A stretch of 64,000 nt of DNA from a virus (IMGVR_UViG_3300010371_000029:66269-130268), one strand, 5' to 3'; counted from the stretch's first letter, positions 5,394-61,986 are shown. Translations and numbers: made by a program. Notes: generated from the letters alone by a model not told the origin.

Positions 5394-6026
5394 CTAACTA
5401 TTAAAATTTATTTTTGGTTGTATTTTACGAGCGATTGTTAGGAATTTAATTAAAATCTGAGCCGTTATTTTTACATCTACCAACGCATCATGCAAATTAC
5501 CTATTGATTCTATTTTCATATAATCCTTTAATGTGCCAAGTTTTAGATTCGGTACTGCTTTAGAATTTTCAAAGAAATAATTAGCCAAAAACAAAGTGTC
5601 ATAAGGTATGAAGTAGAATAAAGCGGCCTCTCCCCTTTCCTTGTTCCAAGGCCCATATTTCTGACACATTTTGTTTATAAATTTACTGTCAAAGTTTACA
5701 ATATTGTGCCCCGCTGGAATTGGACGGGTCCAGGCTTGCCCCGGCTTGTAATTAAAACGTTCTACGTATAGGGCGAAGTCTGCCCAAACTGTTTGAGGTA
5801 ATGGTGCTGTTGAAAGCTTCTCTAATGAATGCCCGTTTATCTCTAAGGCTTTAGGGTCGGCGGTCTCAGGCGTTAAAGGACGAATTAAAGAATTGAATTC
5901 AGAGTTAGGAATAATTGTAAGATTCTTAGAATTGATTGCTACTGCGGCGATTTGAACTATTTCGTGTTTTTCATGGTCCAGACCGCTTGTTTCCACATCG
6001 TAGCACACGATTGTATTGTAATTCAT
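5394..6026 (-). CDS. DEDDh 3'-5' exonuclease (DnaQ/epsilon-like)
   Basis: YDVETSGL (ExoI), AGHNIVNFD (ExoII), HDALVDV (ExoIII). Confidence 0.9.
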   Translation of the reverse strand: MNYNTIVCYDVETSGLDHEKHEIVQIAAVAINSKNLTIIPNSEFNSLIRPLTPETADPKALEINGHSLEKLSTAPLPQTVWADFALYVERFNYKPGQAWTRPIPAGHNIVNFDSKFINKMCQKYGPWNKERGEAALFYFIPYDTLFLANYFFENSKAVPNLKLGTLKDYMKIESIGNLHDALVDVKITAQILIKFLTIARKIQPKINFNS

Positions 6027-6274
6027 TTTTCCTCAGGAAATATGTCGATTGGCCCGTTGTATTCATGACATTTATTCTCCCAATGTATTATTGTGTCTTC
6101 AATTGTAGCTTGAAAAGAGTTATTAAAATAATTTTTTGAACCTATTAAAATTACATCATATTTTACTAATTTTTTCTCCTTATCTATAGAAAGAACACGA
6201 AATATATAGAAACTATCTTGGAAATATTTAGGAAAAGGCCATTTAGACCGTGTGATTTTTAGAAGTCGCTGCAT
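6023..6274 (-). CDS. LLKITR-family small protein 1
   Basis: N-terminus MQRLLKITRS. Confidence 0.8.
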   Translation of the reverse strand: MQRLLKITRSKWPFPKYFQDSFYIFRVLSIDKEKKLVKYDVILIGSKNYFNNSFQATIEDTIIHWENKCHEYNGPIDIFPEEK

Positions 6275-6565
6275 TTAGAATCTTTCAATTCTAGTATAAT
6301 TCTTCTGTGCTTCTTTATAACTACTCCCAAAAACATCTAAAGGACCGGTATATTCGTTATATTCCTTTCCCCATCTTGCCTCAAATATGTCTATCCTGTC
6401 TCTAAAGCCCGAACAGTAATAACCTTTAGCTCTCCAAGGAGTTCTTTTATACATACCGTCGTAATAAATCATTCCGTCTTTACGGAACAATATTCTAAAG
6501 ATGAAGTCGCTAGACTCAAAATATGTGGGCAACTTAAAACGGGTTATTCGTAGTAGTTGATTCAT
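6275..6565 (-). CDS. LLKITR-family small protein 2
   Basis: N-terminus MNQLLRITRF; shares C-terminal EY.GP.D.F with protein 1. Confidence 0.8.
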   Translation of the reverse strand: MNQLLRITRFKLPTYFESSDFIFRILFRKDGMIYYDGMYKRTPWRAKGYYCSGFRDRIDIFEARWGKEYNEYTGPLDVFGSSYKEAQKNYTRIERF

Positions 6566-6812
6566 CGGGAAAATTTGGTATTTCGTTTGGTGGGCAGTCT
6601 TTTATTCCGTAATAACTATTATCATTATATAAGTTTAAAAAGGTAGATAATCTATCTTCCCAATTTGTAGGACAAGGTTTATTTTCTTTTATATAAAATA
6701 CATTATAATAAACAACTCCGTCTATTATATCATTAATACGATAATAGCATTGGCTACATTTCAAATATTTAGGGAGAATTTGAGTTCTCGTTAATTTAAG
6801 TAATGCCTGCAT
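6534..6812 (-). CDS. LLKITR-family small protein 3
   Basis: N-terminus MQALLKLTRT. Confidence 0.8.
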   Translation of the reverse strand: MQALLKLTRTQILPKYLKCSQCYYRINDIIDGVVYYNVFYIKENKPCPTNWEDRLSTFLNLYNDNSYYGIKDCPPNEIPNFPDESTTTNNPF

Positions 6813-8565
6813 TGACCATCTCGCTCGCCATTTGAATTTTATCTAAAATAGCAACTCCAAGCACATCAAATTTTACTAAACCCGCCGCCTCGCCGGAGGA
6901 TAAATCATATCCGCAAATCATTTCGCCCGTTCGTTCATCCAAAATCATAGGGGCGACTGTATCAAGAGGTTCCGAAGATATGACCAAACCACACGCATGT
7001 CGGCTTTTATTAACGAGGGTTCCTTCAAGGGCTATAGCTTGTTTGAAGTAATCGGCGTATTCCCCGACTATATCATTTCCTTCTAATTGGGCCAATCCCT
7101 CAAAATCCTCTGGTTTATGTTCTAAGCACCACCGTATAATGGAGGAATCCCCGGTTTCTTCCTCCATTTCTTGCAAGTCGCCCATTATACGTTGTTCGTC
7201 TGGGATGCCACGGGTTAAATTATTAATCTCCTCGAATGATAAGGCACCATAAGCGCGAATTACCGCTTTTAGGGCGGACCTTCCTTGTAATCGTCCGAAC
7301 GTTACTATTTGTGATACTTTATCCCTACCATATTTAGTGCGAATATATTCAATAACGCTGTCGCGTCCAGATACCGGAAAATCAGTATCTATATCGGGGA
7401 GTGCAACTCTATCTTTCGTGTTACGCCCCGCGTTATAGAACCTCTCAAAATATAGACCGTACTCGATAGGGTCGCAACTAGTAATACCTATTAAATAAGC
7501 AGTGAGACACCCACTAACACTACCTCTACCCACCCCAGGAAGTTGCCCCTGAGATTCGGCATATCGTATGTAATCTTCCACAATTAAGAAATAATCTGCC
7601 AGCCCAGCATTCTCAAAAACTTCAAGTTCGTGCTTAATTCTTTCTACATATTCTCCCTCTTTTTCTACAGATATTATCCCTTTTATTTTATTTCTCCAAC
7701 CCGCCCGGCATAATTCCCTAAGTTGTTCATTAGGTTCGGCCACCGGAAATTTGGGCAACAACGTTTTACTAAGAATGGAAAAGGTTTCACAGCGGTCAGC
7801 TATTTGGGCCGCGCCGGCTATTTCTTGTTCTGATAGAACTTTCCTTACCTCATCTTCTCCCCGGAAATGATTGGTTCCTTTAGGAACCTTATCTATCGTC
7901 ACACCTAAATCATTAGCAAGTATTACTCGATGGTTTATATCATCTTCTGGTTCGCAGTATAGACAATTAAACAGTCCCACGGTTTGTAATTTAAGTTCAG
8001 AGGCGGTTTCCCGCATTATATCAGCGGTAAGCTCACAATCGCCGTCTACCCCCAGATAGAACCTGTCCCCAAAAATATCCCGAAATAGATTACTTTCTTT
8101 AATTAAATCTTCTTTAAAATCCGATTTTAAAGCTTGTTTAAGACTCCAGGGGTCCGAACCGTAATACGGTCCATCGAATAGGATAGCTCCTATGGAACTA
8201 TCTCGGTATCCATTTATACAAATCAACCCTTTGGAATAGTTAGAAAGAATTTCATGTGTAGCTTGCGGCTCTTTCTTAAAATTCTCAGGTTTATTACTTT
8301 GGGATACAATTTTTAATAAATTTTTGAACCCGGCAAGTGTACTCGCCAATAATAGTACGGTGGGACCTCCCATTAGGGCTTGTTCCAACCCAAAGATTGG
8401 CTTAACCCCCTTTTTCTGCGCCGACTGATAGAATTCTACCGCCCCTGATAGTGAGTTTAAATCGGTTAGAGCGACAGTTTCGCCCTTTTCAATTAGGGCA
8501 TCTGGTGGACTTAGACCATAATTCAAACTGTAGAAAGAATGGTTACGTAGGTTTATAAACTTCAT
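6796..8565 (-). CDS. dnaE: DNA polymerase III alpha subunit, N-terminal part (PHP and catalytic palm)
   Basis: Probable start MKFINLRNHSFYSL (8565); ALTD, KPIFGLE, GVGRGS, FERFYN..PDIDTDF, SRHACG, KFDVLG. Confidence 0.95.
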   Translation of the reverse strand: MKFINLRNHSFYSLNYGLSPPDALIEKGETVALTDLNSLSGAVEFYQSAQKKGVKPIFGLEQALMGGPTVLLLASTLAGFKNLLKIVSQSNKPENFKKEPQATHEILSNYSKGLICINGYRDSSIGAILFDGPYYGSDPWSLKQALKSDFKEDLIKESNLFRDIFGDRFYLGVDGDCELTADIMRETASELKLQTVGLFNCLYCEPEDDINHRVILANDLGVTIDKVPKGTNHFRGEDEVRKVLSEQEIAGAAQIADRCETFSILSKTLLPKFPVAEPNEQLRELCRAGWRNKIKGIISVEKEGEYVERIKHELEVFENAGLADYFLIVEDYIRYAESQGQLPGVGRGSVSGCLTAYLIGITSCDPIEYGLYFERFYNAGRNTKDRVALPDIDTDFPVSGRDSVIEYIRTKYGRDKVSQIVTFGRLQGRSALKAVIRAYGALSFEEINNLTRGIPDEQRIMGDLQEMEEETGDSSIIRWCLEHKPEDFEGLAQLEGNDIVGEYADYFKQAIALEGTLVNKSRHACGLVISSEPLDTVAPMILDERTGEMICGYDLSSGEAAGLVKFDVLGVAILDKIQMASEMVNAGIT

Positions 8566-8644
8566 TTTTGTCCACTTATCATCCAGCACCAAGCCACAGT
8601 CGCGCAAATAACGGCTACAGCAGCAAACACACATTCAGGTGTAT

Positions 8645-8842: not shown

Positions 8843-9318
8843 GCTTTCGCCACCTTTTTGTTAATTACTATAAATCTATCATCAAAGACTTGGTTTAATT
8901 CTGGTCCTATATCTTTCCAGTCTAATCCTCCTAAACCACAACCAAGTCTAGGTAACAAAATTCTGGTCCACTGAAGAACATTGGCCACTCCCACTAATTG
9001 ACGGGCCATATCTAATATTAAACCGGGCGAACTAGGCTTGCGCCAATCGTACTTAGTGGGGAAACCAACGACATAGGGGGAATGCTCTCCTAGTAAATCG
9101 GTAAATTTATTAACTAAAATAGTGGGGACTTTGAGTTTTTGAATAGCCGCGCCCCACACTAGGTCAATATCTTTAATAGCCGTTTTAAAATCTAGGGCTA
9201 ATCCGGCCCCCATTACTAATCTACCGTCAGATTTAACTATTAAATTAATGGGACAGACCAGTGCATTGTTTCTAGAATCCGCCCCTTCAATCCAAATATT
9301 ACCTTCTTGCTCTAACAT
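8836..9318 (-). CDS. Macro-domain protein (DarG/Poa1p-like ADP-ribosylhydrolase)
   Basis: VMGAGLALDF, FPTKYDWR, LPRLGCGLGGLDW. Confidence 0.85.
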   Translation of the reverse strand: MLEQEGNIWIEGADSRNNALVCPINLIVKSDGRLVMGAGLALDFKTAIKDIDLVWGAAIQKLKVPTILVNKFTDLLGEHSPYVVGFPTKYDWRKPSSPGLILDMARQLVGVANVLQWTRILLPRLGCGLGGLDWKDIGPELNQVFDDRFIVINKKVAKAC

Positions 9319-9335
9319 AATTTTCCTATTTAGTT

Positions 9336-9881
9336 TTATCTAAACTGCTGTGTCCAAAAACCACTATAGCCACCAACACCAATTCGAGTAAAGTTAGGGT
9401 TTAATAGATTAGCCCTATGTCCCGGCGAATTATACCACGTCCTCGTGACGTTTTCCGGGTTTGGCTGTCCTTGTGCAATATTTTCTCCAGCCCATCCTCC
9501 CGTTCCCCCATGCCTAAAACCGTAAACGTGTCTCATATTATAACAGTGGCGATTAGCGGTAATCTGTAGGGCTCGGTCTGGAATAAGTGGTCGTAACCCA
9601 TGCAACGCGCGGTAAAAATTGGCCCATCGAACCATTTGAACTTCTTCGTGAGTATAAAAGGACCAACATACTATAGGATTCTTTATTACTCCGCCTTCTT
9701 GGTAGTCCCCACTTACATTAACTTGTTCGCCCCAAAGCTCTTCTAGACTCTTTTGTGGTATATCGAGTTTATACGAACCAACATTATCAACTTTAAGTCG
9801 CGGGCCGTCAGTGTCTTTATAAAGTGTTCCACTCTGAGAAAACGGTACGGTTAAAGCGATAATTAAAAGCAATACTTGCAT
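9336..9881 (-). CDS. Secreted CAP/SCP-domain protein
   Basis: Signal peptide; NFYRALHGLRPL, GENIAQGQ, WYNSPGHRANLL, RIGVG..WTQQF. Confidence 0.85.
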   Translation of the reverse strand: MQVLLLIIALTVPFSQSGTLYKDTDGPRLKVDNVGSYKLDIPQKSLEELWGEQVNVSGDYQEGGVIKNPIVCWSFYTHEEVQMVRWANFYRALHGLRPLIPDRALQITANRHCYNMRHVYGFRHGGTGGWAGENIAQGQPNPENVTRTWYNSPGHRANLLNPNFTRIGVGGYSGFWTQQFR

Positions 9882-9891: not shown

Positions 9892-10173
9892 TTACTTAGA
9901 TACAGTTTCCTTAACTTCTTCAGCTTTGCTCTTGTATAGATATTCCGGTATGTCCAGTTCTACAAACTCGGAAAAATCGTCGTGGTCGTAATATTGAGCC
10001 GCGCCCAATACTTGAATGTTCTTAAATTTAGTTCCGTCAAACCAAGCAATATGGGGCGTTCCATCGGCAGGCCCAAGTCCCTTTCCTTCCTTAACATAGA
10101 CGTAATAGGGGCCTTCGCGAAGAGTCAAACCGTTTCCAAGGTCAACAGTATTCATATCCAATAATCTCCACAT
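9892..10173 (-). CDS. Hypothetical protein
   Basis: ORF in the operon; no motif. Confidence 0.55.
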   Translation of the reverse strand: MWRLLDMNTVDLGNGLTLREGPYYVYVKEGKGLGPADGTPHIAWFDGTKFKNIQVLGAAQYYDHDDFSEFVELDIPEYLYKSKAEEVKETVSK

Positions 10174-10361
10174 TCTAAACCTTTAGTAATAACATAAATT
10201 GAGTAATCAGTAGTATAAACTGTCCCACTCCATTTTGATAATAATCTACATTTAACATAACCTCCTTTAAATTCAATAATCGTAATATAATAATATTGAG
10301 ATTCAAAATTAAGAGGAATTTCATTCTCGGATGGTCTAGTTATCCTTAATAATTCTAACAT
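10152..10361 (-). CDS. LLKITR-family small protein 4
   Basis: N-terminus MLELLRITRP. Confidence 0.8.
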   Translation of the reverse strand: MLELLRITRPSENEIPLNFESQYYYITIIEFKGGYVKCRLLSKWSGTVYTTDYSIYVITKGLECGDYWI

Positions 10362-10364: not shown

Positions 10365-11168
10365 CTAGAACTCATAGTTTGCCCATACAGCTTCTAATCG
10401 CCTTTGTTTAGTAGAACCGGTAGCTGAATTATTCGGCAACTCGAATACTCGTTGAGGCTTACCGTATAGAGCCTCGTAAAGTTCGCTCTGATAACCACTT
10501 AGGAGAAATCTCCCTCTAATTTTTCCTAAAACGTCCGCAAGGACTTCATGCTCCTCTTTAGTCATTTCATGTCTATAGACCTTACGGGCACCCTTGGCCC
10601 TAGTTTCTGGGAGGTAGGGCGGGTCAATATAATAAAAAACGTTTTCGGCGTCGTATTTTTGAATAATATCGGTCGCTAAATCGTGTTCGATTTGAATGGT
10701 TCTGAACCGTTCTATTACTTTGGGGAGGTTCTCATCAATACTGGAAAGCCAGCCAGAAACAACGTCGGCCATGCCCGCGCGAGAGCGTTGAAGAGAATAG
10801 GACCAGGATTCGCCCATTCCTGAGATTGATTGTCTAAATTCAACATATGTGCTTACAGCACGTTCAATAGTATTAGATTTTTCAGATTCCTTAGCATCTT
10901 CAAAAATTTTTTCCGAATAGAGTGTTAAACTGAGTTGACGGGTAAATTCCTGAGGTTCACATTTAAGAACTGTGAATAACTCAAACAATCGTTCGTCAAT
11001 ATCATTATAAACTTCGAGTCTAGACGGCTCTTTGTTTAACAGGACAGAACCCGCCCCACCATAGGGCTCCACGTAAATTTCTGTGGCCCCAATTAGGGGT
11101 AGAAGGTGTTTGACCATGTAGTATTTTCCGCCAAACAGCTTGAATGGCGGCCGTATCCTTGTGCTCAT
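10365..11168 (-). CDS. D12-class DNA adenine methyltransferase (Dam-like)
   Basis: FGGK, YVEPYGGAGSV, EVYND, YIDPPY. Confidence 0.92.
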   Translation of the reverse strand: MSTRIRPPFKLFGGKYYMVKHLLPLIGATEIYVEPYGGAGSVLLNKEPSRLEVYNDIDERLFELFTVLKCEPQEFTRQLSLTLYSEKIFEDAKESEKSNTIERAVSTYVEFRQSISGMGESWSYSLQRSRAGMADVVSGWLSSIDENLPKVIERFRTIQIEHDLATDIIQKYDAENVFYYIDPPYLPETRAKGARKVYRHEMTKEEHEVLADVLGKIRGRFLLSGYQSELYEALYGKPQRVFELPNNSATGSTKQRRLEAVWANYEF

Positions 11169-11230: not shown

Positions 11231-12145
11231 TTAAATCGCGTCTTCGTTACGGGACCGAAAGTATTCCCGAAGCTCGTCTCGAAGCTTAATCTTATTAAGA
11301 GTAAGTTGATATAAACCTTGACTATCTTTCTTTATATCCGTATGTGGATTGAATTGGTTATCCACCAAAATTTGCCAGCGAGTTCTATAGCCCCTCGCAG
11401 CTTTTGGGCCATGCCACCGATGTAGAAGAGAGCCCGGCACATATCCTATATTTTTCTTTAACTCTAAAGCATGTTCCTGCCAAACGTGGAGCGTCTTTTT
11501 ATACTCTAGAGTACATCCTTTATGATAAGAGGATTCCACTTGGCCAATTAAAGCCCGGCTTATATGATGGTCCCCCGCCCCAAGAATTGCCCAATCAATC
11601 AGGCCGCCCATAGTTTCCCAGGCCCTTCTAGTACAGGCCCAGGCATACCCAGGATGCCAAAAATGACCCCCATAGTAACCAGACGGCATTTCCTTTCTAC
11701 CATTAACATAACTTGCGGCGAATCCTTGGGCTTTGCCAATAATCTTGCTATCGCGCGGAGGAGCTAGGTCATAAGCGTCCTCGAACATTTGGACCACATC
11801 ATAATGTTGTAACTGGTGAAGGGTTTCTTTAACCCAATCGTGTCGGGTAAATGAAACGTCAGCATCAATCCAGGCCACATATTTCCAATCGCTCGGGAGT
11901 CTAGCGACTCCTAGATTTATCATGTTTTCCTTGTGCCATAATTCCGTAGAACTAAATAACTGTAAATGCTTAGGATTAGTTCTAACTGTTACTTCATGTG
12001 GGCGGTCTCCAAAGGCCATTTCAACTGTATAAAGGTCCCCACCCGAATTAAGTACATACGGCTCAAATTCCCGATAAAGTTCATATCGAGAACGATAGCG
12101 GTTAGTATTAGATATAGCGGTTACTACGTGTAGAGTTTCATTCAT
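11231..12145 (-). CDS. Glycosyltransferase-like protein (GT-A, DxD)
   Basis: LWHKENMINLG, YVAWIDADV, HPGYAWA, ILGAGD, HRWHG. Confidence 0.65.
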   Translation of the reverse strand: MNETLHVVTAISNTNRYRSRYELYREFEPYVLNSGGDLYTVEMAFGDRPHEVTVRTNPKHLQLFSSTELWHKENMINLGVARLPSDWKYVAWIDADVSFTRHDWVKETLHQLQHYDVVQMFEDAYDLAPPRDSKIIGKAQGFAASYVNGRKEMPSGYYGGHFWHPGYAWACTRRAWETMGGLIDWAILGAGDHHISRALIGQVESSYHKGCTLEYKKTLHVWQEHALELKKNIGYVPGSLLHRWHGPKAARGYRTRWQILVDNQFNPHTDIKKDSQGLYQLTLNKIKLRDELREYFRSRNEDAI

Positions 12146-22153: not shown

Positions 22154-22605
22154 CGTTTTGTTTCCTGAAGGGCTAATAGACTTTTAGTCATTGATTCCAC
22201 CCTAGCCGGCAGATAGGATAGGGCCGCTATATGGGCCTGCGCGTCACGTATAGCGTTAAATAACATAACGGCCACAGAATTATCTCTAATTGCTATCATT
22301 TTCCGCTCATCAAAGGAATAGGCCGTAATTTCAACCATCCGGGGGGCTATGATATATTTAAGATACTCGTCGCACTTTTTTATAAGAGCTTCGTGTTTAT
22401 TTAACTCTTGCTGTAAATAAAGAGAGTATTTAGATAGTTCAAAAGCATATTCCCCACAACTTTCTGGAGAAAGCCGCCTTAAATCATTAGATTCTAAACC
22501 TAGAATCTCATCAATTGATTTACCTATACTTACCCTATCTAGACTTAAACCTTTATAATAAGAAAGCAAGGTTTCTCGAAACTTTTGAATTTCCTCAGTT
22601 GTCAT
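22141..22605 (-). CDS. Hypothetical helical protein (possibly a UvsY-like recombination mediator)
   Basis: All-helical and near recA; function is inference only. Confidence 0.4.
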   Translation of the reverse strand: MTTEEIQKFRETLLSYYKGLSLDRVSIGKSIDEILGLESNDLRRLSPESCGEYAFELSKYSLYLQQELNKHEALIKKCDEYLKYIIAPRMVEITAYSFDERKMIAIRDNSVAVMLFNAIRDAQAHIAALSYLPARVESMTKSLLALQETKRWQK

Positions 22606-22996
22606 ATGCGGCTCTAATGATTTGTTGCCAGTTTTCTTCCTGGTCCCAGGGCAAAATTGCTAATTTAATCCCATTAAGTTCGCAAAGTCTTTTCTTTTCA
22701 GAATCTCGTTTAAGGGAAGCCCGGAAGCCCCCCATATTTCCATGAAAACGTTCACAGTACACGAAATGTTGCTGTCCGTGAACTTCAACGCCAAGCCGTT
22801 CGGACGGCAAGAAAAAGTCAAGGTAAAGAGAAGTAGAAGCACCCGGCAAGTGTACTTCTTCAGCCGCTATGCAGAAAGGAAAGAGACGTTTTAGTAACGT
22901 CCTGCAAATGATATGTGGGCGGCTTTTTAATCGTTCAAGGTTTGTTTTAGGAAGGGACAACCGATATTCGCGGCCATCTAAACCTTTAAATTTTAT
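22595..22996 (-). CDS. PD-(D/E)XK (DUF559/Vsr-like) endonuclease, probable ATA start
   Basis: LYLDFFLP..GVEVHGQQH..RDSEK..C..NGI. The frame extends to (ATA)KFKGLDGREY after a GAGAGG RBS. Confidence 0.7.
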   Translation of the reverse strand: MKFKGLDGREYRLSLPKTNLERLKSRPHIICRTLLKRLFPFCIAAEEVHLPGASTSLYLDFFLPSERLGVEVHGQQHFVYCERFHGNMGGFRASLKRDSEKKRLCELNGIKLAILPWDQEENWQQIIRAAYDN

Positions 22997-23213
22997 GAGG
23001 GGCCTCTCTATTTAACCATTCTATAAATTTATCTAAATACTCCCAACTTTCTGGTTGCCCCTCTGGTACAGAAAAAGATTTATGATGATTATATCCATAT
23101 ACAACATTATCTTTTATTCTAGTTATAGTTACAAAATCTACACCTGTTTTAAAAACATATGTACCAATTAAATCAGAATAATTTGGTCTAGTTATTTTGA
23201 GTAAATTATACAT
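22986..23213 (-). CDS. LLKITR-family small protein 5
   Basis: N-terminus MYNLLKITRP. Confidence 0.8.
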   Translation of the reverse strand: MYNLLKITRPNYSDLIGTYVFKTGVDFVTITRIKDNVVYGYNHHKSFSVPEGQPESWEYLDKFIEWLNREAPHKI

Positions 23214-23434
23214 TAACTAATTTTCCAAATTCTACCACTTTTTAAAAGTCTGTGAAATTCTTCTAAAGTGGCCGACCTTTTTAAATCTGGACTGTTACTA
23301 TGAAATCCATAAATTCTTTCATTATCTACGTTTTGAATAATTAGGTCCACGCCATATAATGCAAGTAGATTTGACCGATAAGTCCCAATAATTGAATCCC
23401 TAGGATTCCTAGTTAATTTTAATAAGGCGTTCAT
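23213..23434 (-). CDS. LLKITR-family small protein 6
   Basis: N-terminus MNALLKLTRN; shares IGTY with protein 5. Confidence 0.8.
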   Translation of the reverse strand: MNALLKLTRNPRDSIIGTYRSNLLALYGVDLIIQNVDNERIYGFHSNSPDLKRSATLEEFHRLLKSGRIWKIS

Positions 23435-24480
23435 TTAAATAAACTCAACAACTTTCCATAAATTATATCGGTTTCATCCGGGTTTTCTTTAAGATAAATG
23501 CGGAACTTTTCTTCGCCCTGAAACTTCTGCTCAACGCCAGCGGCGTCTTTGTGTTTGAACCATGCCCCACTTAATTCCACCACCCCATATTCTTTGGCAC
23601 ACCCTATAATCTCACTAATCGTATCCACACCTTCACCGTACCGAATTATCATTTCGGGCTTTTGGAAAGGAGGGCCTAGGGAACAACAGTGAACTTCCCA
23701 ATGAACCCTTTGACCTATAGGGGCTTCCCCCTCTTTTTTAGAGATTTTTTCCATATAGGTGGCTTCAAGCTTAGTATCGGCTTGGTAAGCTATGGCAAAG
23801 CCTCCCTTCTCTGTTCTAGTTTTCCCCTTACCTGATGGATTTCCCATCATTTGGGTAATAGCTACTACGAAATTTTTATTTACCGGGAGTATCTGGGCAA
23901 CTTCCTGGCAAAATTTGCTTAAGAGCGAATTAACCTCGGCTCGTCGTCCAGCTTCCCCAAAGTCAGACTTTTCCCCAGTTGACCTAGGTGTGAGCATGGG
24001 TATGGAATCTATAATTAATACGCAACCGTGGTCATTCTTTAAAAAATCCAATCCCATCCCTAAGTAATCTTCGGCATAATAAATTACTGGTTCGCCATTA
24101 GGAAATTCTTCAGTGGGGGGGAGCTTGTGGGAACGAATTAAGTGAAATTTATCAAAATCAAATCCCGCCCAATCTAAATTCTTCTTAGAAATTCTTCCTT
24201 CCACGTCAATGTAATAAATGGTCCGCCCACCATATTCGGGCTTTTGGCAATTTGCGGCGAACTTTAGCGCTAAGGTACTTTTGCCCATCTTGGGCATACC
24301 GGTTAAAGTAATCCAAGAGCCTTCTTGCGCGCCTCCATATATTGATATATCAATAGCTGGAGTCATAGGTACAATCATAGGGGGCGATTCCATCACCTTG
24401 CGAGGGTCAGTAAAAACGCCGGTCCCATATTTTTTTAGGATTGACTTATGAGCTTCTTCAGAAAGGGATTTCTGTATCAT
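23431..24480 (-). CDS. recA: RecA-like recombinase
   Basis: GMPKMGKST, YIDVE, IIDSI, ITQM, GGFAIAY; probable start MIQKSL (24480). Confidence 0.9.
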   Translation of the reverse strand: MIQKSLSEEAHKSILKKYGTGVFTDPRKVMESPPMIVPMTPAIDISIYGGAQEGSWITLTGMPKMGKSTLALKFAANCQKPEYGGRTIYYIDVEGRISKKNLDWAGFDFDKFHLIRSHKLPPTEEFPNGEPVIYYAEDYLGMGLDFLKNDHGCVLIIDSIPMLTPRSTGEKSDFGEAGRRAEVNSLLSKFCQEVAQILPVNKNFVVAITQMMGNPSGKGKTRTEKGGFAIAYQADTKLEATYMEKISKKEGEAPIGQRVHWEVHCCSLGPPFQKPEMIIRYGEGVDTISEIIGCAKEYGVVELSGAWFKHKDAAGVEQKFQGEEKFRIYLKENPDETDIIYGKLLSLFK

Positions 24481-24718
24481 CTGGAACCGATTTGTTATAT
24501 AATCTTTTTGGTAATTCAAAATAAGGTCCAAATATTTCAGAACTAAAATCTTCTAAACAAAAAAATCTATGTGAACCATCAATAGTTAATAAAACAGTGA
24601 AATCTTCAATATTTATATCTTCCACAGTATAAATATACTCTTGTCTATAAATAGAATCACCAATTTGGACAGGAAAATCAAGTTTGGGCGGTCTAGTAAT
24701 TTTTAACAATTCTTTCAT
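24458..24718 (-). CDS. LLKITR-family small protein 7
   Basis: N-terminus MKELLKITRPPKLDFP. Confidence 0.8.
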   Translation of the reverse strand: MKELLKITRPPKLDFPVQIGDSIYRQEYIYTVEDINIEDFTVLLTIDGSHRFFCLEDFSSEIFGPYFELPKRLYNKSVPDDTEIPF

Positions 24719-27879: not shown

Positions 27880-28323
27880 TTAAAGAGGCCCACTCCAGGG
27901 ACCCTGTGGATAATTTCTTATTAATTCGTAACGATTTTCTATAAAAACTTCATTTCGGTTCAAAACCTGGCATCTTATACCATTTCGTCTTAGCCACATA
28001 GTTAAGTCTAATCTGCCAAAAATTCTAAAACTACGGCCCTGATGCCTTGTGGCTAATTTAAGTAAGGCCCACTTCTTAAATATATGGTGGTAATCGCGCA
28101 AACGCGAACCACAGTATGTTTGAAGATAATAACTATCCTGACTTCCTCTTACAACTTGAACAAAGTTCAAATAACGTTGTCTTATTCTGAAAGAGTTAGT
28201 ATCAGGGTCATCCTGTAAGGTAAATAGATAATCGCCCACATGAATATTAGTTTGGGGATATCTATAGAAATTTGGAAAATCAAGTTCAATGGGTGGTCTA
28301 GTAATCCTAAGCAAAGCTTGCAA
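27880..28323 (-). CDS. LLKITR-family protein 9 (longer, 147 aa)
   Basis: N-terminus MQALLRITRPPIELDFP (TTG start). Confidence 0.8.
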   Translation of the reverse strand: MQALLRITRPPIELDFPNFYRYPQTNIHVGDYLFTLQDDPDTNSFRIRQRYLNFVQVVRGSQDSYYLQTYCGSRLRDYHHIFKKWALLKLATRHQGRSFRIFGRLDLTMWLRRNGIRCQVLNRNEVFIENRYELIRNYPQGPWSGPL

Positions 28324-46674: not shown

Positions 46675-47015
46675 GAGAGATTTTCCTTAGATTGTTCTTT
46701 AGTTACTTCAAATAGCGAGTCATAAATCATCTCGCCGTATTGGTCATAAGTTTCCCCATCTACGTGGTTTTTAATTACGCGATGGACGGCTCGACTGTGA
46801 AAATATGACAATCTAGGTGGTATATCGGGTAATTCAGAAGCTTTCTTATTTCGACAATAACTAATTATTTCAACTATATCAACAATAATACCTAAAATAG
46901 TAGCAATAGTAACAATAGAAAGAATAACAAAACCAAACTTATTAGGGTCGTCATCAGTATGACCTTTTTGCATTAACCTATCATGGACAAGTATGGCGAA
47001 GTCTTCTCTAGTCAT
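46653..47015 (-). CDS. Membrane protein
   Basis: Central TM helix. Confidence 0.55.
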   Translation of the reverse strand: MTREDFAILVHDRLMQKGHTDDDPNKFGFVILSIVTIATILGIIVDIVEIISYCRNKKASELPDIPPRLSYFHSRAVHRVIKNHVDGETYDQYGEMIYDSLFEVTKEQSKENLSCILKAT

Positions 47016-47478
47016 GGAAAACTACCTTTGCTATTTGATTTGTGATAAAATTGGACCAGCCATTAATAACTGAGAAATTTCTATTAAATGCACCTGAATG
47101 GTGCGAAGCATGAGATTCTGGGGGAATGAAAATATAAAATCGCTGTAAAGCGATTATCCATTTTGGAGCAGGATGATGCGTGTAATAATGTGGGATTTGG
47201 GAAGCTCCAATAAAAATGCCTAATGGTAAAAGCCAAGATGTAAGAAAAAAGAATGATAATATAATTAAAGGTACTCCGGCTAATGTCGGATACCAATCAA
47301 ATGTCATAGTCCAGGGCCGCTCATGATGATTTCTAAAATCGGCCACCTGGGAAGGAATGTTCCAACCTCTATCTGTTATTATATGATAGAGCGCAGTGAT
47401 AAAGTCCGCTAAAAAATAGATAAAGACAAGCTTTATCAATAAGAGGCAAATGTTCAGGTTTCCATCTCCAAAACCCAA
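47008..47478 (-). CDS. TMEM189/CarF (FAD4/Kua)-family lipid desaturase
   Basis: ADFITALYH..D, FRNHHERP, HYYTH, LQ..IP.ESHASHH, FSVINGWSN histidine boxes. Confidence 0.8.
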   Translation of the reverse strand: MGFGDGNLNICLLLIKLVFIYFLADFITALYHIITDRGWNIPSQVADFRNHHERPWTMTFDWYPTLAGVPLIILSFFFLTSWLLPLGIFIGASQIPHYYTHHPAPKWIIALQRFYIFIPPESHASHHSGAFNRNFSVINGWSNFITNQIAKVVFHD

Positions 47479-48221
47479 GCGTCATCACATAAATTAGGAT
47501 TAAGAATATAATTATAAGGAATAGTAAAATTTCCCTTATCTCCCCATTGTTCACTCCAACTATTTCGACCATTAAATCTTTGAGTTGAATTATTATAACC
47601 TGTCAAAACAACACAGTGTCCGCCAAGTAATTTTTCATTCTTTTTTGGCATTGGCACAATACCAGTTTTAGCTACTTGGTCCGATTCAAAACTTTCATAA
47701 ACAGAAATACCAATAACTACCGGGAGTTTCTGAGCTAAAGGAGCTTGAATAGCAGCAAGATTAGTATTATCAACTGAGAGGTATTCAGTAACTATAGTTT
47801 TAAGGGCATTTTGGAAAGCTACCTGAGGAGGTTTTTGGGTAAATTTAGAAATATCATATGGCCAATAGAATTGATTTGGAGCACCGAGTTTATTAAGAAC
47901 TTTTACACCATCTCTAATCATTGCCCCGGAATCTTGATTTACCGTTCCTTCAATATTTCTTTCATTCCAATATATGAAAAGATTAGATGGGCGAAACATC
48001 TTAAGCCCTTGTTTTGTAAGGAGATAAGCTACTGCCGCACCTAAACCAAAAGAAGTGCATGCTCCTAAATTTCCCTGGTCCCAAACTTGCGGGAACATGG
48101 GGGTCAAGTCTATCTTATTAGGAAGTGGTGTAGCTCTGTTAAGATGATATTGGGCGATGTGGTCTCTGTGGTCGGGAAGACTAGGTTTCCAACCGTATTT
48201 TCGATTTCGAGTTGTTAACAT
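47454..48221 (-). CDS. Papain-family C1A cysteine peptidase (xylellain-like)
   Basis: YGWKPSLPDHRD, DQGNLGACT, GGHCV, RNSWSEQWGDKG.F. Confidence 0.92.
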   Translation of the reverse strand: MLTTRNRKYGWKPSLPDHRDHIAQYHLNRATPLPNKIDLTPMFPQVWDQGNLGACTSFGLGAAVAYLLTKQGLKMFRPSNLFIYWNERNIEGTVNQDSGAMIRDGVKVLNKLGAPNQFYWPYDISKFTQKPPQVAFQNALKTIVTEYLSVDNTNLAAIQAPLAQKLPVVIGISVYESFESDQVAKTGIVPMPKKNEKLLGGHCVVLTGYNNSTQRFNGRNSWSEQWGDKGNFTIPYNYILNPNLCDDAWVLEMET

Positions 48222-52367: not shown

Positions 52368-54392
52368 TTATAGATAGGCAGCCGAACCGTAATCGGGAAG
52401 ATTTTGACGTGGAAAACCTTTAACATTAGAAAAAGCCCAGCAACTTCCGTAGGAAATCATTCTAGCAGCTATATCAGCATGAATTTTAAATGCTCCTTGA
52501 GGCATTTCCCATTCACCCATAGGGCCAGAATTCCATCTGAATCCCCAACTCTGTTGAACTAGAAAATTTGGTTCGCTCTCACGATAATCACAGGCGGTCC
52601 ATGCCATACAATTATGTGTTGCTACACCTTCTGCTATATACGAATTAACGTCTGCTACTTCAATATTGTAAACTTCCCCACAATAATTTTCTTTTTCTAA
52701 GATTTTAATAGGGTGAGCTAAATAATTCTTATAAAAAAATCTAGCTCGTTTAACCTTATTTTCACTCCATTCAACACTCCAAACAGCTTTTGAATTAGGA
52801 TATGCTTCTCCAGCTTTCCTTTGTTTACAAGAAATTGTAACATGGTTACCAAAACTAACTAAAATATGAAAAATTTGATAAGCAAGTTTTTTGGAAATAG
52901 TATTTATTCTGAATCTATCAGGAGATTTTCTTATAAGGCATCCGTCTCCTGCGAAAATCCCATCTATAACAGATTGTAAATCCCAACCATAATAAAGAAA
53001 TTCTGGAATTTTCTTATTAATTGCTCCAGAATTAAACCATTCTCTAAAAGCTCTTGCAACTATAGCAGAATAAACTCTAATCCTTACATAAGTATCATAT
53101 TCATACAAATATGCCTTAACTCCTAACAATTCAAACGCTTTCATTGCCCTTTTTATTGTAATATTCTCTTTAATACCAATGGTAAGACTAATTCTATGAT
53201 TTTTAGTAGAATCGCCATCAGCAATAAATAATCCAAATAACCATGCTAATTCAGAATTTGGTTCAGTAATCTTATTAGGTATATTTTTTACGCTTTTACC
53301 ACCCAAATCAAATTCAGGGAGATGAATTTTTTCAGAATTTATATTGATTGAAGGAGTTAGAAGGTAATCTCCAATTTGCAAATCTTCAGCTTTAACCCAA
53401 AGAGGGGTTTCTTGTATCCAAGTAATTGGTTTAGAACGAACAGCTAAACCTCCTTCATCAACAAAAATACGTGGCAATTTTACAGATTTTAAAACTTTTC
53501 TCAAAATGAGAACTGGATGCTCTACCGTTAAAGAAAATTTATTTAATCCTTCGCCTTTTATAGAAATTAGCTGACCAATATAATTATGTTTAAATGTTTT
53601 AGTTACTTTATGTAATTTACCATCATGACCAAAAACTTCTTCACCACTTTGAATCTCTTGTATAAAACGATTAGTTATACCAGAAACTAGACAATTTTCT
53701 AAATAACAATGTGACCAACTTCCTTGAGGTCTAGAAAATCCATCTTTATCTCTTACATTACTAAAACCTTGATTACTACATACAGCTAGTCCATATCCAT
53801 TAGCAATCGCATCTGCCGCCTCATCTAATGAACGAACTAAACTTATTGTACCAACCTGATTTTTAATAGCTTCTTCTATAATTTCTCGCGGAATACCTTG
53901 AGTACCCCAACGGGTTCCTTTACTAGAATCATAAACTGTAAGGTCAACACTACCATATTTCTTTCTAAGTACCACGCCGCCTTTTTGGTGAACAAATTGC
54001 GCAGCAGTTACTCCAGCCATGCCTGCGCCACCATAACCTCTAGACCCATATATAGCCTCACTTGCCCCTCTTACCAACCAATCCTCAGGAGCACCTTTAA
54101 TATCTATCTGAACGGCTCTAGAAACATCAACGGCATTTCTTGTGCCCATGGAGACACAATCGCCGGTGGTCTGGGCTTCAGAGTAAGCATTTTTGTCAAA
54201 TTTTATAACGCTTTTAAATGGTAGACTAAGTTTACCTTTAGCACTCCCACTAAGGTCTGGAGCAGCTTCCCCAAATAGTGGCATCGGTAATTCTGAGAGT
54301 ATTTTATCTGTTTGGTCTTGGTCGAAATGAGAACCGGTTAGACCGTTAGAATAAGCGTTCAGCAAATCTTTAGGAGTTTGGAAGTCTGACAT
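52368..54392 (-). CDS. Papain-fold (C1-like) cysteine peptidase, intein-containing
   Basis: QTTGDCVS (catalytic Cys), WSH|CM (catalytic His), QQSWG..W. Confidence 0.85.
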   Translation of the reverse strand: MSDFQTPKDLLNAYSNGLTGSHFDQDQTDKILSELPMPLFGEAAPDLSGSAKGKLSLPFKSVIKFDKNAYSEAQTTGDCVSMGTRNAVDVSRAVQIDIKGAPEDWLVRGASEAIYGSRGYGGAGMAGVTAAQFVHQKGGVVLRKKYGSVDLTVYDSSKGTRWGTQGIPREIIEEAIKNQVGTISLVRSLDEAADAIANGYGLAVCSNQGFSNVRDKDGFSRPQGSWSHCYLENCLVSGITNRFIQEIQSGEEVFGHDGKLHKVTKTFKHNYIGQLISIKGEGLNKFSLTVEHPVLILRKVLKSVKLPRIFVDEGGLAVRSKPITWIQETPLWVKAEDLQIGDYLLTPSININSEKIHLPEFDLGGKSVKNIPNKITEPNSELAWLFGLFIADGDSTKNHRISLTIGIKENITIKRAMKAFELLGVKAYLYEYDTYVRIRVYSAIVARAFREWFNSGAINKKIPEFLYYGWDLQSVIDGIFAGDGCLIRKSPDRFRINTISKKLAYQIFHILVSFGNHVTISCKQRKAGEAYPNSKAVWSVEWSENKVKRARFFYKNYLAHPIKILEKENYCGEVYNIEVADVNSYIAEGVATHNCMAWTACDYRESEPNFLVQQSWGFRWNSGPMGEWEMPQGAFKIHADIAARMISYGSCWAFSNVKGFPRQNLPDYGSAAYL
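52611..53708 (-). mobile_element. Intein with LAGLIDADG endonuclease in the peptidase (366 aa)
   Basis: CYLENCLV, TVEHP, WLFGLFIADG, GIFAGDG, ends VYNIEV..ATHN then Cys+1. Confidence 0.95.
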
Positions 54393-58102: not shown

Positions 58103-58123
58103 AAAAGAGCGGTAAGCCGCCCT
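58103..58123 (-). terminator. Rho-independent terminator
   Basis: GGGCGG-ctta-CCGCTC followed by a T run. Confidence 0.7.
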
Positions 58124-58532: not shown

Positions 58533-58726
58533 AAAACTGTACCTTTATTGTTTCGCGGCCCAAAATGCTAGAAGAACCGATAATATTATAGTAAAGGCGA
58601 TTAATATTATTACTACAAATAATTTAACGGTGAACATCAATTATTGTCCGTGGACAAGGATAGTTAAGAAAGAAAGTATCAGTACAATGGCCGCGAAGAC
58701 AAGAATATCGCCCATAGAATTTTTCC

Positions 58727-58969: not shown

Positions 58970-58979
58970 AGGGGGCCTT

Positions 58980-59633: not shown

Positions 59634-59685
59634 AGGGGGCTCCTCTTAAAAGGATTTTGGGTACTCCAAAAATCCTATACACCGA

Positions 59686-59916
59686 CTATTGAATTCGTTT
59701 AATCATATTGCTATTTAGATATATTTGAAATAAATTTAAAGAACGAATTATTGGATTATCTAACCTTGGGTCACCGGTTTCTTTACAATAAGCATTATAA
59801 TATATATGATAATCGTCTCTTTTAATTATTTTTAAAATCCAATTTTCTATTCCACCATAACATGTTTCATATACTTCTTCGGGGGGAGACCGAGTAAGTT
59901 TTAGGAGTTTGTACAT
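59686..59916 (-). CDS. LLKITR-family small protein 10
   Basis: N-terminus MYKLLKLTRS. Confidence 0.8.
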   Translation of the reverse strand: MYKLLKLTRSPPEEVYETCYGGIENWILKIIKRDDYHIYYNAYCKETGDPRLDNPIIRSLNLFQIYLNSNMIKRIQ

Positions 59917-60182
59917 GGAAGGAAATACTTATCTGGGGATAGGTCGTAGGCTTCTTCTCTAGTTAAATAAGTTGGGGAATAATGTTCAAAAAAATCTTTC
60001 CAAGATTGAATTCCAAAATACATATCTCTCTCTTTGTCCCAATCATTAATACAATGAATAAAGTTATAATACCAATTATAATTATCTATTCTAATTACTT
60101 CATATATATAGGAATCTACTGTAAACCAAAAAGGAACCTGTCTTGAGTAGGTCGGACGGGTTATTCGCAGCATCTCTCTCAT
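59901..60182 (-). CDS. LLKITR-family small protein 11
   Basis: N-terminus MREMLRITRP. Confidence 0.8.
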   Translation of the reverse strand: MREMLRITRPTYSRQVPFWFTVDSYIYEVIRIDNYNWYYNFIHCINDWDKERDMYFGIQSWKDFFEHYSPTYLTREEAYDLSPDKYFLPCTNS

Positions 60183-60433
60183 CGGGGTGTTACCAAACTA
60201 TCGAAATCTTTTTTAGAAATTTGATATATTCTACCAGAATCAAAATATTGTACCCAGGAAGATTTTTTAAGCGTATCAGAATGAGTATACCACGCTTTAT
60301 CATTTATCCTAAAAACATAATATTCCCATTCTTCTTTTATTTCTCCAACTATCTCGTAAACATATTCTAGTTCTCTTAAATATCTTGGATACGGTTGTAT
60401 TTTTTCTGCCGTTATTTTTAATATTTCACGCAT
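60179..60433 (-). CDS. LLKITR-family small protein 12 (variant tag)
   Basis: N-terminus MREILKITAE. Confidence 0.75.
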   Translation of the reverse strand: MREILKITAEKIQPYPRYLRELEYVYEIVGEIKEEWEYYVFRINDKAWYTHSDTLKKSSWVQYFDSGRIYQISKKDFDSLVTPR

Positions 60434-60518
60434 CGCCCACCAATTTTATAGATTATACATAGGCGTAGCCCTACCAAAATTCAGCAACTTTTGGGGCAAT
60501 TTCAGAAGCATAGCTTCC

Positions 60519-60687
60519 CTAGTTAGTTTTAAAAGCCTTAGCATAATCCTCAAACCTTAATTTAGCTATAGACTTTCTATCGGAAGTCCTAACTACTACA
60601 CCCTCAGAACCCCCTTTTGCATCTCCCGATAGAGTCACTTTAGATTTAGAATAATCTTGCAAAAAACCGAATATCAAAATTCATCAT
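60519..60687 (-). pseudogene. RNA-ligase-like C-terminal remnant
   Basis: ..GGSEGVVVRTSDRKSIAKLRFEDY..* resembles nucleotidyltransferase motifs IV/V. It follows an out-of-frame MMNFDIR start. Confidence 0.6.
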
Positions 60688-61049
60688 TCTGGCACATATT
60701 GTTTGGGAATTTTTTTAAGTTTAAACTCTCCATTATATCGGTCTCCAGTAAATGAACCATTAAAACCGTGTTTGTTCATTACCCCTTTCCATTCATAATA
60801 GGCCCCGTCAATAATAGCAACACCTTTCAGGTTGTTTTCGGGACCTTTAAAAGGGACCGAATAGTCCCATGAGACCCCTTCCCACACTCCCCAAAAGTGG
60901 CCCAGGTACTTATCTTTACCGTCTGGAATTACCTCAAGGTTCATAGGGCCTTCGATAGGTCGATTGGTAGTCCACCAGGAGCCTCGATAAATCTCGGCTC
61001 CAGCAGAAGATGTAAAGAGAAGTATAATAATAAATAGTTTAAGTTTCAT
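60684..61049 (-). CDS. Secreted beta-rich hypothetical protein
   Basis: Signal peptide (..SAGA|E); G.F.G repeats. Confidence 0.65.
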   Translation of the reverse strand: MKLKLFIIILLFTSSAGAEIYRGSWWTTNRPIEGPMNLEVIPDGKDKYLGHFWGVWEGVSWDYSVPFKGPENNLKGVAIIDGAYYEWKGVMNKHGFNGSFTGDRYNGEFKLKKIPKQYVPE

Positions 61050-61341
61050 ATGTTCCCCATATTAAGGAATCATTCACATAATCGCCAACTTTTAATTCAT
61101 CTGTCGTAGCCGTACACATTCCTCCTGGACCATGTGGAATTCTCTTTAATAAGGCGGGAAGAGCATATTTTGCCGGCATAGAAATATTGAAATCTTCACA
61201 TTTAATTAAAGTGATTTTAAAATTATCACGATTAATTGCTATAATCTTACTAAATTTTAATGTTCTAGTAATAGACTTTTCATTTTTACGAGATAGAAAA
61301 CCAAGAAAAGGAAAGCTGAGAATTTTTCTACGAGAAATCAT
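61039..61341 (-). CDS. Tat-like signal protein with a degenerate Hint-like segment
   Basis: MISRRKILSFPFLGFL...DELKVGDYV. Confidence 0.55.
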   Translation of the reverse strand: MISRRKILSFPFLGFLSRKNEKSITRTLKFSKIIAINRDNFKITLIKCEDFNISMPAKYALPALLKRIPHGPGGMCTATTDELKVGDYVNDSLIWGTYET

Positions 61342-61351
61342 AGAATTTTTC

Positions 61352-61747
61352 CTAACTGGGCAACTTGCCACCCTCTAGATAAAGTGAACCGTCAGCAAGA
61401 AAAGCGGAAACATCAAGATAAATCTTATCCCCCGATTTTAAATCACAGAGTTTACGAGCAATAGAAAAATCTATATATCTCACGTTTTTGTTTAAACATG
61501 TTTCTTTATACGGGACATTAACACAAAAAGCATGAGTCTCCGTACATGCTAGTCTCCACCCTTTTCCTCGAATTTCATAAAAGTCACCAGTCTTTGACCT
61601 TCTTTCATAAACACCTTGAATTTCGAGCAATATTGGACTATTAGGCATTTTAAACGTTTTTTCTGAAAAGGCGGCTTCTGCTAGCCTTGAAGAAAATAGC
61701 GACAAAAACGGAAAAGTGGTAAAAAGACGCCTTGAAATCTTATTCAT
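61352..61747 (-). CDS. Tat-like signal protein with a partial Hint domain
   Basis: MNKISRRLFTTFPFLSLF..AEAA; LACTETHAF (block B TxxH); CDLKSGDKI. Confidence 0.6.
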   Translation of the reverse strand: MNKISRRLFTTFPFLSLFSSRLAEAAFSEKTFKMPNSPILLEIQGVYERRSKTGDFYEIRGKGWRLACTETHAFCVNVPYKETCLNKNVRYIDFSIARKLCDLKSGDKIYLDVSAFLADGSLYLEGGKLPS

Positions 61748-61986
61748 ACCTGCGGCTCCCTGGGAAATTTAGGTATATAATTTAATGGTTTCATATATCC
61801 TTTTTCTAATTGATATTCAAATATTGAAAGAGGGTCACAAAGAGAAGCTTGATATACCTTATTAATCGTAGCGTCATAATATACTTTATTGTTTTTAATT
61901 TTTAAAATTCTATAAATAATATCATTACTTTTTATATATTTTGGTATATGAGAAGATGGGCGAGTTATACGAAGTACATTATACAT
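61744..61986 (-). CDS. LLKITR-family small protein 13
   Basis: N-terminus MYNVLRITRP. Confidence 0.8.
   Translation of the reverse strand: MYNVLRITRPSSHIPKYIKSNDIIYRILKIKNNKVYYDATINKVYQASLCDPLSIFEYQLEKGYMKPLNYIPKFPREPQV

Follow-up and report, generated by a model that had tools for sequence, protein, structure and literature searches.

A 28-copy family of small phage proteins with a fixed N-terminal peptide and, in its main groups, a predicted Tudor/SH3-like barrel

Introduction

A single N-terminal address shared by a diverse set of small phage proteins is already known from the internal proteins of the T-even phages. PMC3012670 describes the T4-type internal proteins as small, diversifying and highly diverse phage proteins that carry an N-terminal capsid-targeting sequence (CTS) and are tied to phage-host conflict. 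Here we analyze a family of small genes in a phage contig of 130,268 bp from a soil metagenome, centered on a stretch of 64,000 nucleotides that constitutes its bases 66269-130268 (IMGVR_UViG_3300010371_000029:66269-130268, hereafter the window). Positions are those of the window unless flagged as genome coordinates. The members begin with a peptide of consensus M-x-x-[LIMV]-L-[KR]-[IL]-T-R-(P), to which we refer as the tag. Like the T4 CTS, it is an N-terminal peptide of ~10 residues that is the sole conserved element across small, fast-diversifying phage proteins. The two tags nevertheless lack sequence similarity to each other, and the present genes differ from those of the T4 internal proteins in lying on the early strand and not with the head genes, in showing no recognizable protease-type cleavage site or prohead core genes, in reaching 28 copies in one genome, and in encoding bodies that share one predicted fold in the two main groups.

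Three further systems bear comparison. The host-takeover module of phage SPO1 is a promoter-proximal cluster of many small early genes, and the present family similarly forms an array of small genes directly behind strong matches to host-type promoters; to our knowledge, SPO1-type takeover modules do not consist of a single set of paralogues that begin with one shared peptide. Barrels of the Tudor/SH3/KOW class, a common fold class that includes the RNA-polymerase-interacting domains of CarD and Mfd, the C-terminal Tudor domain of UvrD/PcrA, the KOW domain of NusG, FeoA and the VapX antitoxin, are compact units of 4-5 bent antiparallel strands, and they align with the topology predicted here, in which a short helix follows four such strands. 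The present proteins differ from the solved barrels in sharing at most 23% identity with them at structural Z-scores below 8, and in having no Pfam, PHROGs or PDB sequence match; we know of no matched barrel domain that bears this N-terminal peptide, and the predicted likeness in fold does not imply a shared function. Lastly, the ClpX N-motif-1 degrons of the lambda-O class, as given in PMC9775585, resemble the tag in having a hydrophobic-hydrophobic-basic-hydrophobic core at an extreme N-terminus that is predicted to be unstructured here. Unlike in those degrons, the strongest positions of the tag (Thr8, Arg9) and its frequent Pro10 fall outside the motif, which is weak enough to be matched by chance.

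The evidence given below indicates that these genes very probably form one orphan, phage-specific multigene family in which a fixed N-terminal peptide is joined to a fast-evolving Tudor/SH3-like small beta-barrel and a short C-terminal helix.

Results and Discussion

Size and distribution of the family

The genome has a G+C content of 37.7%, and nearly all genes of the window are on the minus strand. A first reading of the window, made from its sequence alone, had listed 13 small open reading frames (ORFs) of 69-147 amino acids (aa) with the tag always at residues 4-9. All 13 exist on the minus strand with the lengths given, and the tag holds that position in 13/13. A strict in-frame pattern, M-x-x-[LMIV]-L-[KR]-[IL]-T-[RA], matches the window 13 times, each time on the minus strand, and these matches comprise 12 of the 13 listed ORFs plus a 32-aa remnant at 60446-60544. 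The remaining listed ORF, at 27880-28323, is present and starts with TTG. The copies in the window, with body groups as defined below and with the supporting analyses in parentheses, are:

6023-6274, minus strand: member of 83 aa, MQRLLKITRS..., body group B (AlphaFold2 pLDDT 84, four strands and a helix, tag in coil)
6275-6565, minus strand: member of 96 aa, MNQLLRITRF..., body group B (tag pattern, body clustering, body profile)
6534-6812, minus strand: member of 92 aa, MQALLKLTRT..., body group B (tag pattern, body clustering)
10152-10361, minus strand: member of 69 aa, MLELLRITRP..., body singleton (tag pattern, body clustering)
22986-23213, minus strand: member of 75 aa, MYNLLKITRP..., body singleton, adjoining an HNH endonuclease gene at 22595-22960
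23213-23434, minus strand: member of 73 aa, MNALLKLTRN..., body singleton (tag pattern, body clustering)
24458-24718, minus strand: member of 86 aa, MKELLKITRP..., body group D, with a counterpart at L026 10858-11163
26666-26947, minus strand: member of 93 aa, MKQLLKITRP..., body group C, with a counterpart at L026 9355-9603
27880-28323, minus strand: longest member, 147 aa, TTG start, (M)QALLRITRP..., body singleton (ESM Atlas model poor, pLDDT 0.41)
59686-59916, minus strand: member of 76 aa, MYKLLKLTRS..., body group B (tag pattern, body clustering)
59901-60182, minus strand: member of 93 aa, MREMLRITRP..., body group B (tag pattern, body clustering)
60179-60433, minus strand: member of 84 aa, MREILKITAE..., Ala for Arg9, body group B (tag pattern, body clustering)
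60446-60544, minus strand: remnant copy of 32 aa, MLRLLKLTREA... (tag pattern)
61744-61986, minus strand: member of 80 aa, MYNVLRITRP..., body group B (tag pattern, body clustering)

Extending the same pattern to the whole genome gives 27 strict matches, to which we add one variant, MYRLLKATRP, with Ala at position 7 (genome 874-1089). The family is thus larger than the 13 members first claimed. All 28 copies are on the minus strand with the tag at residues 4-9; 25 of them are at least 60 aa long, and three are remnants of 38, 32 and 12 aa. Among the strict matches the start codon is ATG in 22, TTG in three, and GTG and CTG in one each, and in every copy a usable start lies exactly 3 codons ahead of [LIMV]-L-[KR]-[ILVA]-T-[RA]. 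In all six frames the core motif occurs 27 times in the genome, as compared with 1.13 on average, and never more than 3, in 30 triplet shuffles. With 28 copies against ~1 expected by chance, the family is therefore real and non-random, and it is about twice the size first stated. Among the crude gene calls, the intact copies account for ~14% of the ~180 that reach 60 aa and for 25 of the 81 calls of up to 150 aa. Phage genomes rarely contain multigene families as large as this.

The three truncated copies are located at genome 2579-2695 (38 aa), genome 59178-59216 (12 aa) and window 60446-60544 (32 aa). The 38-aa copy is similar to its neighbor at genome 2692-2919, and the 32-aa copy is probably a decayed paralogue. 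The 12-aa stub ends at a CCCCAAAA run, another frame reading on into an unrelated ORF of ~50 aa, and we regard it as a likely case of decay. Together these copies indicate ongoing gene turnover, and the combination of tandem arrays with truncated copies fits rapid birth and death under conflict.

Conservation acts mainly on the peptide

In the 27 strict copies position 4 is Leu, Ile, Met or Val, position 5 is Leu, position 6 is Lys or Arg and position 7 is Ile or Leu. Pro10 is frequent (16/27) and not required. A position-specific scoring matrix (PSSM) of the tag is most informative at Thr8 (4.18 bits), followed by Arg9 (3.42), Leu5 (3.05) and Lys/Arg6 (2.91).

At the nucleotide level, Leu5 is encoded by TTA, TTG, CTA, CTT, CTG and CTC and Arg9 by AGA, AGG, CGT, CGG and CGC, so that both codon families are used in each case, while Thr8 uses all four of its codons. 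Over codons 4-9 the mean information is 1.28 bits per nucleotide at first and second positions versus 0.38 at third positions, and none of the 21 nucleotides upstream of the tag genes exceeds 0.32 bits. These nucleotide values were derived from 36 sequences, one of them spurious (a non-start match at 8030 of L026, a second metagenomic contig that is described below). The variability of third positions and the switching between Leu and Arg codon families therefore place the constraint mainly on the peptide. This bears out the argument from synonymous variation that the sequence-only reading had made, with a codon bias at three positions, weighed further below, as a caveat. The contrast between tag and body is large: mean identity is 0.57 over tag residues 2-10 and 0.23 over the bodies in a forced global alignment. 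Both values are unchanged across 192 pairs of one member from this genome and one foreign member (from L026 or the protein P0021). Readings of the tag as a signal peptide, a Tat signal, a lipobox or a clamp-binding motif were dropped on composition alone.

Divergent bodies share a predicted fold in the two main groups

Beyond the tag, an alignment of 24 members reveals only a faint common pattern. Bodies were clustered by removing residues 1-10 and comparing 32 members all against all with phmmer (24 from this genome, seven from L026, and P0021). This gave group A with 10 members, group B with nine, group C with three, group D with two, and eight singletons. Profile-profile comparison of bodies between groups yielded probabilities of only 0.1-13%. 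The earlier description of the bodies as very divergent is accordingly true at the level of sequence, with no signal across groups and eight singletons.

AlphaFold2 models were obtained for one member of each main group. The group B member at 6023-6274 (alignment A1) is predicted with a mean local distance difference test score (pLDDT) of 84.0 and has strands at residues 17-19, 23-31, 36-43 and 49-57 and a helix at 58-68. The group A member P0021 (alignment A2; pLDDT 84.5) has strands at 18-21, 25-32, 36-41 and 50-54 and a helix at 55-61. Thus groups A and B, which together hold 19 of the 32 clustered members, have the same predicted Tudor/SH3-like barrel and helix. The group A model matches the SETDB1 Tudor domain (Z 5.9, root-mean-square deviation (rmsd) 2.1, 53 residues aligned), VapX (Z 5.4), the UvrD C-terminal domain (Z 5.3), the SMN Tudor domain (Z 5.3) and CarD (Z 5.2). 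The group B model matches PA1645 (Z 7.0, rmsd 2.5, 69 aligned), Spindlin (Z 5.3), the TnsB barrel (Z 5.2), FeoA (Z 4.5) and CarD (Z 4.0). In this exhaustive comparison 14 PDB entries are common to the top-50 lists of both models. Since all matches have Z below 8, they assign a class of fold and not a family. Foldseek found no match at E of 0.001 or lower. In the ESM Atlas the structural neighbors of P0005 are solely of KOW/SH3 type, and the entry for the 147-aa member offers nothing usable. A homodimer prediction with two copies of the 83-aa member (alignment A1) scored 0.01 against a mark of 0.42.

The tag lies outside the predicted barrel and is never separated from it

In both models residues 1-10 are coil and the least confident part of the chain, with a mean pLDDT of 62 in group B and 53 in group A. 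Structural alignments to solved barrels start only at residues 9-13. The tag is hence predicted to be an N-terminal extension outside the barrel; two independent models speak against the possibility, raised in the sequence-only reading, that it is a buried part of one ordinary fold.

Tag and body are strictly coupled. Hidden Markov models (HMMs) of the tag-stripped groups A-D were compared with the 1,354 stop-to-stop ORFs of the genome that reach 35 aa or more, and all 20 ORFs matched at E<0.01 are tagged. No tagless paralogue was present at that threshold, the best tagless ORFs having E-values of 0.025 and 0.093. In the reverse direction, the tag PSSM, run over all six frames of the genome, gave no further match above background, and neither a larger protein nor one of another class carried a tag. 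Because tag and body always occur together, we appear to be dealing with one co-inherited tag-plus-barrel lineage and not with a portable label. The sequence-only reading had proposed an address label or docking helix attached to a diversified set of effectors. In the sense of a portable label on different effectors this is not supported, as the bodies of the two largest groups are of one predicted fold, every detectable body homologue in the genome is tagged and no unrelated protein is.

Relatives occur in a nearly unrelated phage

Profile searches with 24 members gave no significant match in Pfam (best E 0.022) or in PHROGs (best E 0.0063), each of these best values coming from a single member and a differing family, and PDB sequence searches gave matches at chance level (best E 0.67). 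The family was put forward as undescribed, and it does indeed lack a characterized Pfam match. A literature search on titles and abstract openings brought up no description of such a family among the papers listed.

A profile of the 24 members, run on 1.84 billion representative proteins, has 22 matches at E of 0.001 or lower, namely 19 of the phage's own proteins, two foreign members (P0020 and P0021) and one weakly matching repeat protein (P0023). Of the 25 intact own copies this search retrieved 19, and of the seven copies from L026 just one, so the apparent rarity of the family is a limit of sensitivity and not a finding. A second homologue search with the same alignment returned own proteins only (6 of 346 candidates). 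Cluster look-up traced P0020 to a long JGI contig and P0021 to a Logan contig of 2.7 kb. The weak match P0023, a JGI metagenome protein of 643 aa, is hit at E 8.8e-4 over four stretches. It holds ~10 repeats of a '...G..Y.....V.K..GDRVYY...' module that resemble tandem small barrels without a tag, and it has no Pfam match.

The contig that bears P0020, L026, is of soil type, and 20,270 of its 41,093 bases were examined. They contain seven tagged ORFs, with ATG starts in five and one each of GTG and TTG:

L026 4022-4267: family member, body group B
L026 9355-9603: family member, body group C
L026 10001-10273: family member, body group A, as is P0021
L026 10858-11163: family member, body group D
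L026 16567-16929 (120 aa), 9090-9371 (93 aa) and 10539-10835 (98 aa): tagged ORFs with bodies that match no group

Foreign members thus span all four body groups. A non-barrel fold in any of the three ungrouped ORFs would make the tag more modular. Apart from the family, one ORF in these 20 kb has a detectable counterpart in the present genome, a GT2-like protein of 31% identity. As foreign members join all groups, the subgroups must predate the separation of both phages, with the peptide kept throughout. An invariant 9-residue peptide in two almost unrelated phages marks a strong common constraint, and no curated family covers it. In the libraries and literature searched, the peptide itself, its strict coupling to a Tudor/SH3-like barrel, the 28-copy expansion and the retention in two nearly unrelated phages are all undescribed.

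Scans with the tag as a DNA pattern used a narrow form (Lys as AAA, with Pro10). In IMG/VR this form gave 23 single matches, all in short or non-family ORFs and of at most 18.4 bits, as expected for the tag only. In species genomes it gave at least 120 single matches, with no family member among the matches listed. A cluster of such matches in Chitinophagaceae was rejected as an unrelated conserved protein of ~444 aa. P0020, P0021 and the N-terminal part of the phage's DnaE were not found in IMG/VR. The closest phage matches to its ribonucleotide reductase (RNR) and DnaE have only 31-44% protein identity, and the sole nucleotide match is one of 110 bp to a Chryseobacterium phage dnaE. A guess that the host belongs to the Bacteroidota was dropped in view of Shine-Dalgarno-like AAGGA/AAGGAG upstream of several copies and of TTGACA/TATAAT-type promoters, which is weak evidence. 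Both phage and host are uncultured; three near-identical short pieces of the phage are present in a second soil study, and no RNA run was listed as containing it.

Tagged genes are located on the strand of the replication genes

The window encodes a replication and nucleotide-metabolism region that includes a DnaE-type polymerase in two pieces, a DnaQ-like exonuclease, a primase, a DnaB-like helicase, a UvsX-like recombinase, a class II RNR with an insertion, a dNMP kinase, a dCMP deaminase and MazG, together with several methyltransferases, several HNH and other endonucleases, and inteins. On the same strand the tagged genes are scattered between these genes, and they often overlap their neighbors by a few bases. 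The structural module (terminase and tail-fiber matches) is on the plus strand at genome 7135-56208.

The largest array, with 13 copies running from genome 6348 down to 874, starts just downstream of a 590-bp divergent intergenic region. Within this region, at genome 6826-6933, there is a perfect (12/12) sigma-70-like promoter match, TTGACA-17-TATAAT with an upstream TG, plus a second match of 11/12, and both point into the array. This layout is as expected for immediate-early genes read by host RNA polymerase, a timing that we infer from position. The two ends of the contig showed no overlap, and it is therefore only a possibility that its initial array continues into the copies at the end of the window.

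A possible docking role and its alternatives

We tentatively propose, at somewhat below even odds, that the tag is a shared docking peptide on diversifying binder domains. The peptide would be a short linear motif, unstructured on its own, whose three exposed hydrophobic residues at positions 4, 5 and 7 are set among basic ones. It would probably insert into a groove of a single conserved partner, for which a hub protein of the host is the likeliest candidate. Hypervariable barrel surfaces would supply many different specificities, such that each paralogue would tether, block or redirect a different target at the common partner during the early host-takeover phase. We infer all three elements of this scheme, namely the binding by the tag, the shared partner and the different targets of the barrels. 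A host partner is favored because two phages with almost no other gene in common keep the same peptide. Additionally, an intramolecular contact should co-vary with the barrel, which the tag does not do, and an external conserved partner is therefore the simplest account. If the peptide is such a docking or recruitment signal, it would single out one vulnerable hub of soil bacteria as a phage target, and it would provide a very short transferable tag together with barrels that constitute a natural library of small binders. We consider improbable the bolder version in which the family is a binder library with a common handle. Here each of ~25 barrels would capture its own host protein, and the tag would connect every one of them to the same host machine, for instance a chaperone or an AAA+ unfoldase/protease. 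As a minimal and portable signal for recruitment, the tag would enable the phage to reroute or destroy many host factors simultaneously during the opening minutes of infection, which would amount to a phage counterpart of targeted protein degradation.

Several points weigh against the docking proposal and the anatomy on which it is built. The argument for docking draws on conservation and predicted disorder. The fold matches are at a level that may reflect a common arrangement only, and the alignments behind the AlphaFold2 models are shallow (24 and 10 rows). The single predicted fold applies to the two main groups only, with eight singletons that include the 147-aa member and the 120-aa ORF of L026. 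The promoters are consensus matches, of which there are eight on the minus strand and five on the plus strand at 11-12/12 genome-wide. Finally, Lys6 is AAA in 18/18 cases versus 69% genome-wide (p=0.0012), and ACT and CCA are over-used at Thr8 and Pro10, so there may be some nucleotide-level constraint on the tag codons. This bias may equally stem from the shared ancestry of related copies or from a mild nucleotide preference at the 5' end.

A structural role for the tag, as a cap folding back on its own barrel or as a strand or helix through which copies assemble into homo- or hetero-oligomers, is unlikely but has some appeal, since three exposed hydrophobic residues on an 80-aa protein need burial somewhere and tag and body are never apart. 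Small beta-barrels often oligomerize, and Sm/Hfq-type barrels form rings. In the models, however, the tag is low-confidence coil and structural alignments begin past it, and a near-invariant peptide on barrels that have diverged past sequence recognition fits intramolecular co-evolution poorly. Were the tag only a structural cap, the family would still present arms-race-like diversification on a Tudor/SH3-like scaffold, albeit of less general interest. The chance that the tag is instead an N-terminal degron recognized by ClpXP or another AAA+ protease of the host, which would make early proteins short-lived or deliver barrel-bound targets, seems low. The ClpX N-motif-1 consensus is polar-(T/hydrophobic)-hydrophobic-basic-hydrophobic, and residues 3-7 of the tag read polar-hydrophobic-hydrophobic-basic-hydrophobic in nearly all copies. 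A (T/hydrophobic)-hydrophobic-K-(I/L/V) core near an unstructured N-terminus is common to the N-motif-1 examples in Table 2 of PMC9775585, and in PMC12723719 the lambda-O tag, a phage protein example of this class, binds in the open ClpX channel. Yet the motif is low in information and leaves the most conserved residues, Thr8 and Arg9, unexplained.

We regard it as very unlikely that the tag acts in the manner of the T4 CTS, loading proteins into the prohead for injection with the DNA and possibly being removed by a prohead protease. The formal resemblance is close, a peptide of ~10 residues being the only element conserved across the family. All copies are nevertheless on the early/replication strand, opposite the structural module, with the main array promoter-proximal. 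The T4 prohead protease cleaves after hydrophobic-x-Glu, whereas the tag ends in T-R-(P) and has no Glu at consensus positions 4-10. Furthermore, net charges of the members range from -7 to +10 with no common DNA-binding character, and PHROGs scans of 20 plus-strand proteins revealed no protease or scaffold, although such proteins are so divergent that the missing match does not prove the enzyme absent. Less probable still is a site of processing or modification, with the tag cut by a phage papain-family protease or with Thr8/Arg9 modified by a phage enzyme. A Peptidase_C1 protein is encoded at 47454-48221, Leu5 is invariant, position 6 is always basic, and papain-family enzymes are suited by a hydrophobic P2 (Leu5) and a Lys/Arg P1 (position 6). 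For modification, one can cite Thr8 and Arg9 as the most informative positions and several glycosyltransferase-like genes near copies in both phages. On the other side, no C1 peptidase was seen in the 20 kb of L026 examined, protease specificity is not predictable from sequence, and such glycosyltransferase adjacency is expected by chance. To the idea that conservation serves expression, as a 5' coding signal for translation initiation, a translational repressor site or a nascent-peptide effect, we give the least weight of all. The codon bias described above and the A/T-rich consensus codons are in its favor, but the low information at third positions, the switching of Leu and Arg codon families and the essentially unconserved upstream sequence are not what it would lead one to expect.

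Other features of the window

The DnaE gene is in two halves, and the features of this region, other than the tagged genes listed above, are:

2793-4358, minus strand: DnaE-type DNA polymerase III alpha, C-terminal part (profile positions 623-1073)
4339-5334, minus strand: HNH endonuclease, between the DnaE parts
5394-6026, minus strand: DnaQ-like exonuclease subunit, between the DnaE parts
6796-8634, minus strand: DnaE-type DNA polymerase III alpha, N-terminal part (profile positions 38-615)

Five genes part the two halves, namely the HNH endonuclease, the DnaQ-like exonuclease and the three tagged members at 6023-6274, 6275-6565 and 6534-6812, and a mobile cassette appears to have inserted into the gene and split it. 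Selfish elements are unusually abundant in this genome. For example, there are many HNH endonucleases, several of them inside the structural module, and intein and LAGLIDADG signatures are present in at least two large ORFs (1-1491 and 52368-54392, minus strand). The RNR of 1,154 aa (30309-33773, minus strand) matches crAss-like RNRs in two pieces with ~71% covered, which suggests a putative insertion.

In both phages, genes for glycosyltransferase-like proteins and epimerases are found no more than 1-2 kb from tagged genes (11231-12145 and 28307-29230 on the minus strand of the window; L026 11156-13077). Given the number of copies, this adjacency may be due to chance. Two adjoining genes complete the features of note:

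47008-47478, minus strand: lipid-desaturase-domain protein (E 1.8e-16), adjoining the Peptidase_C1 gene
47454-48221, minus strand: papain-family cysteine protease, Peptidase_C1 (E 8.4e-11, 42.8 bits versus a cut-off of 20.7)

Both are unusual in a phage replication region.

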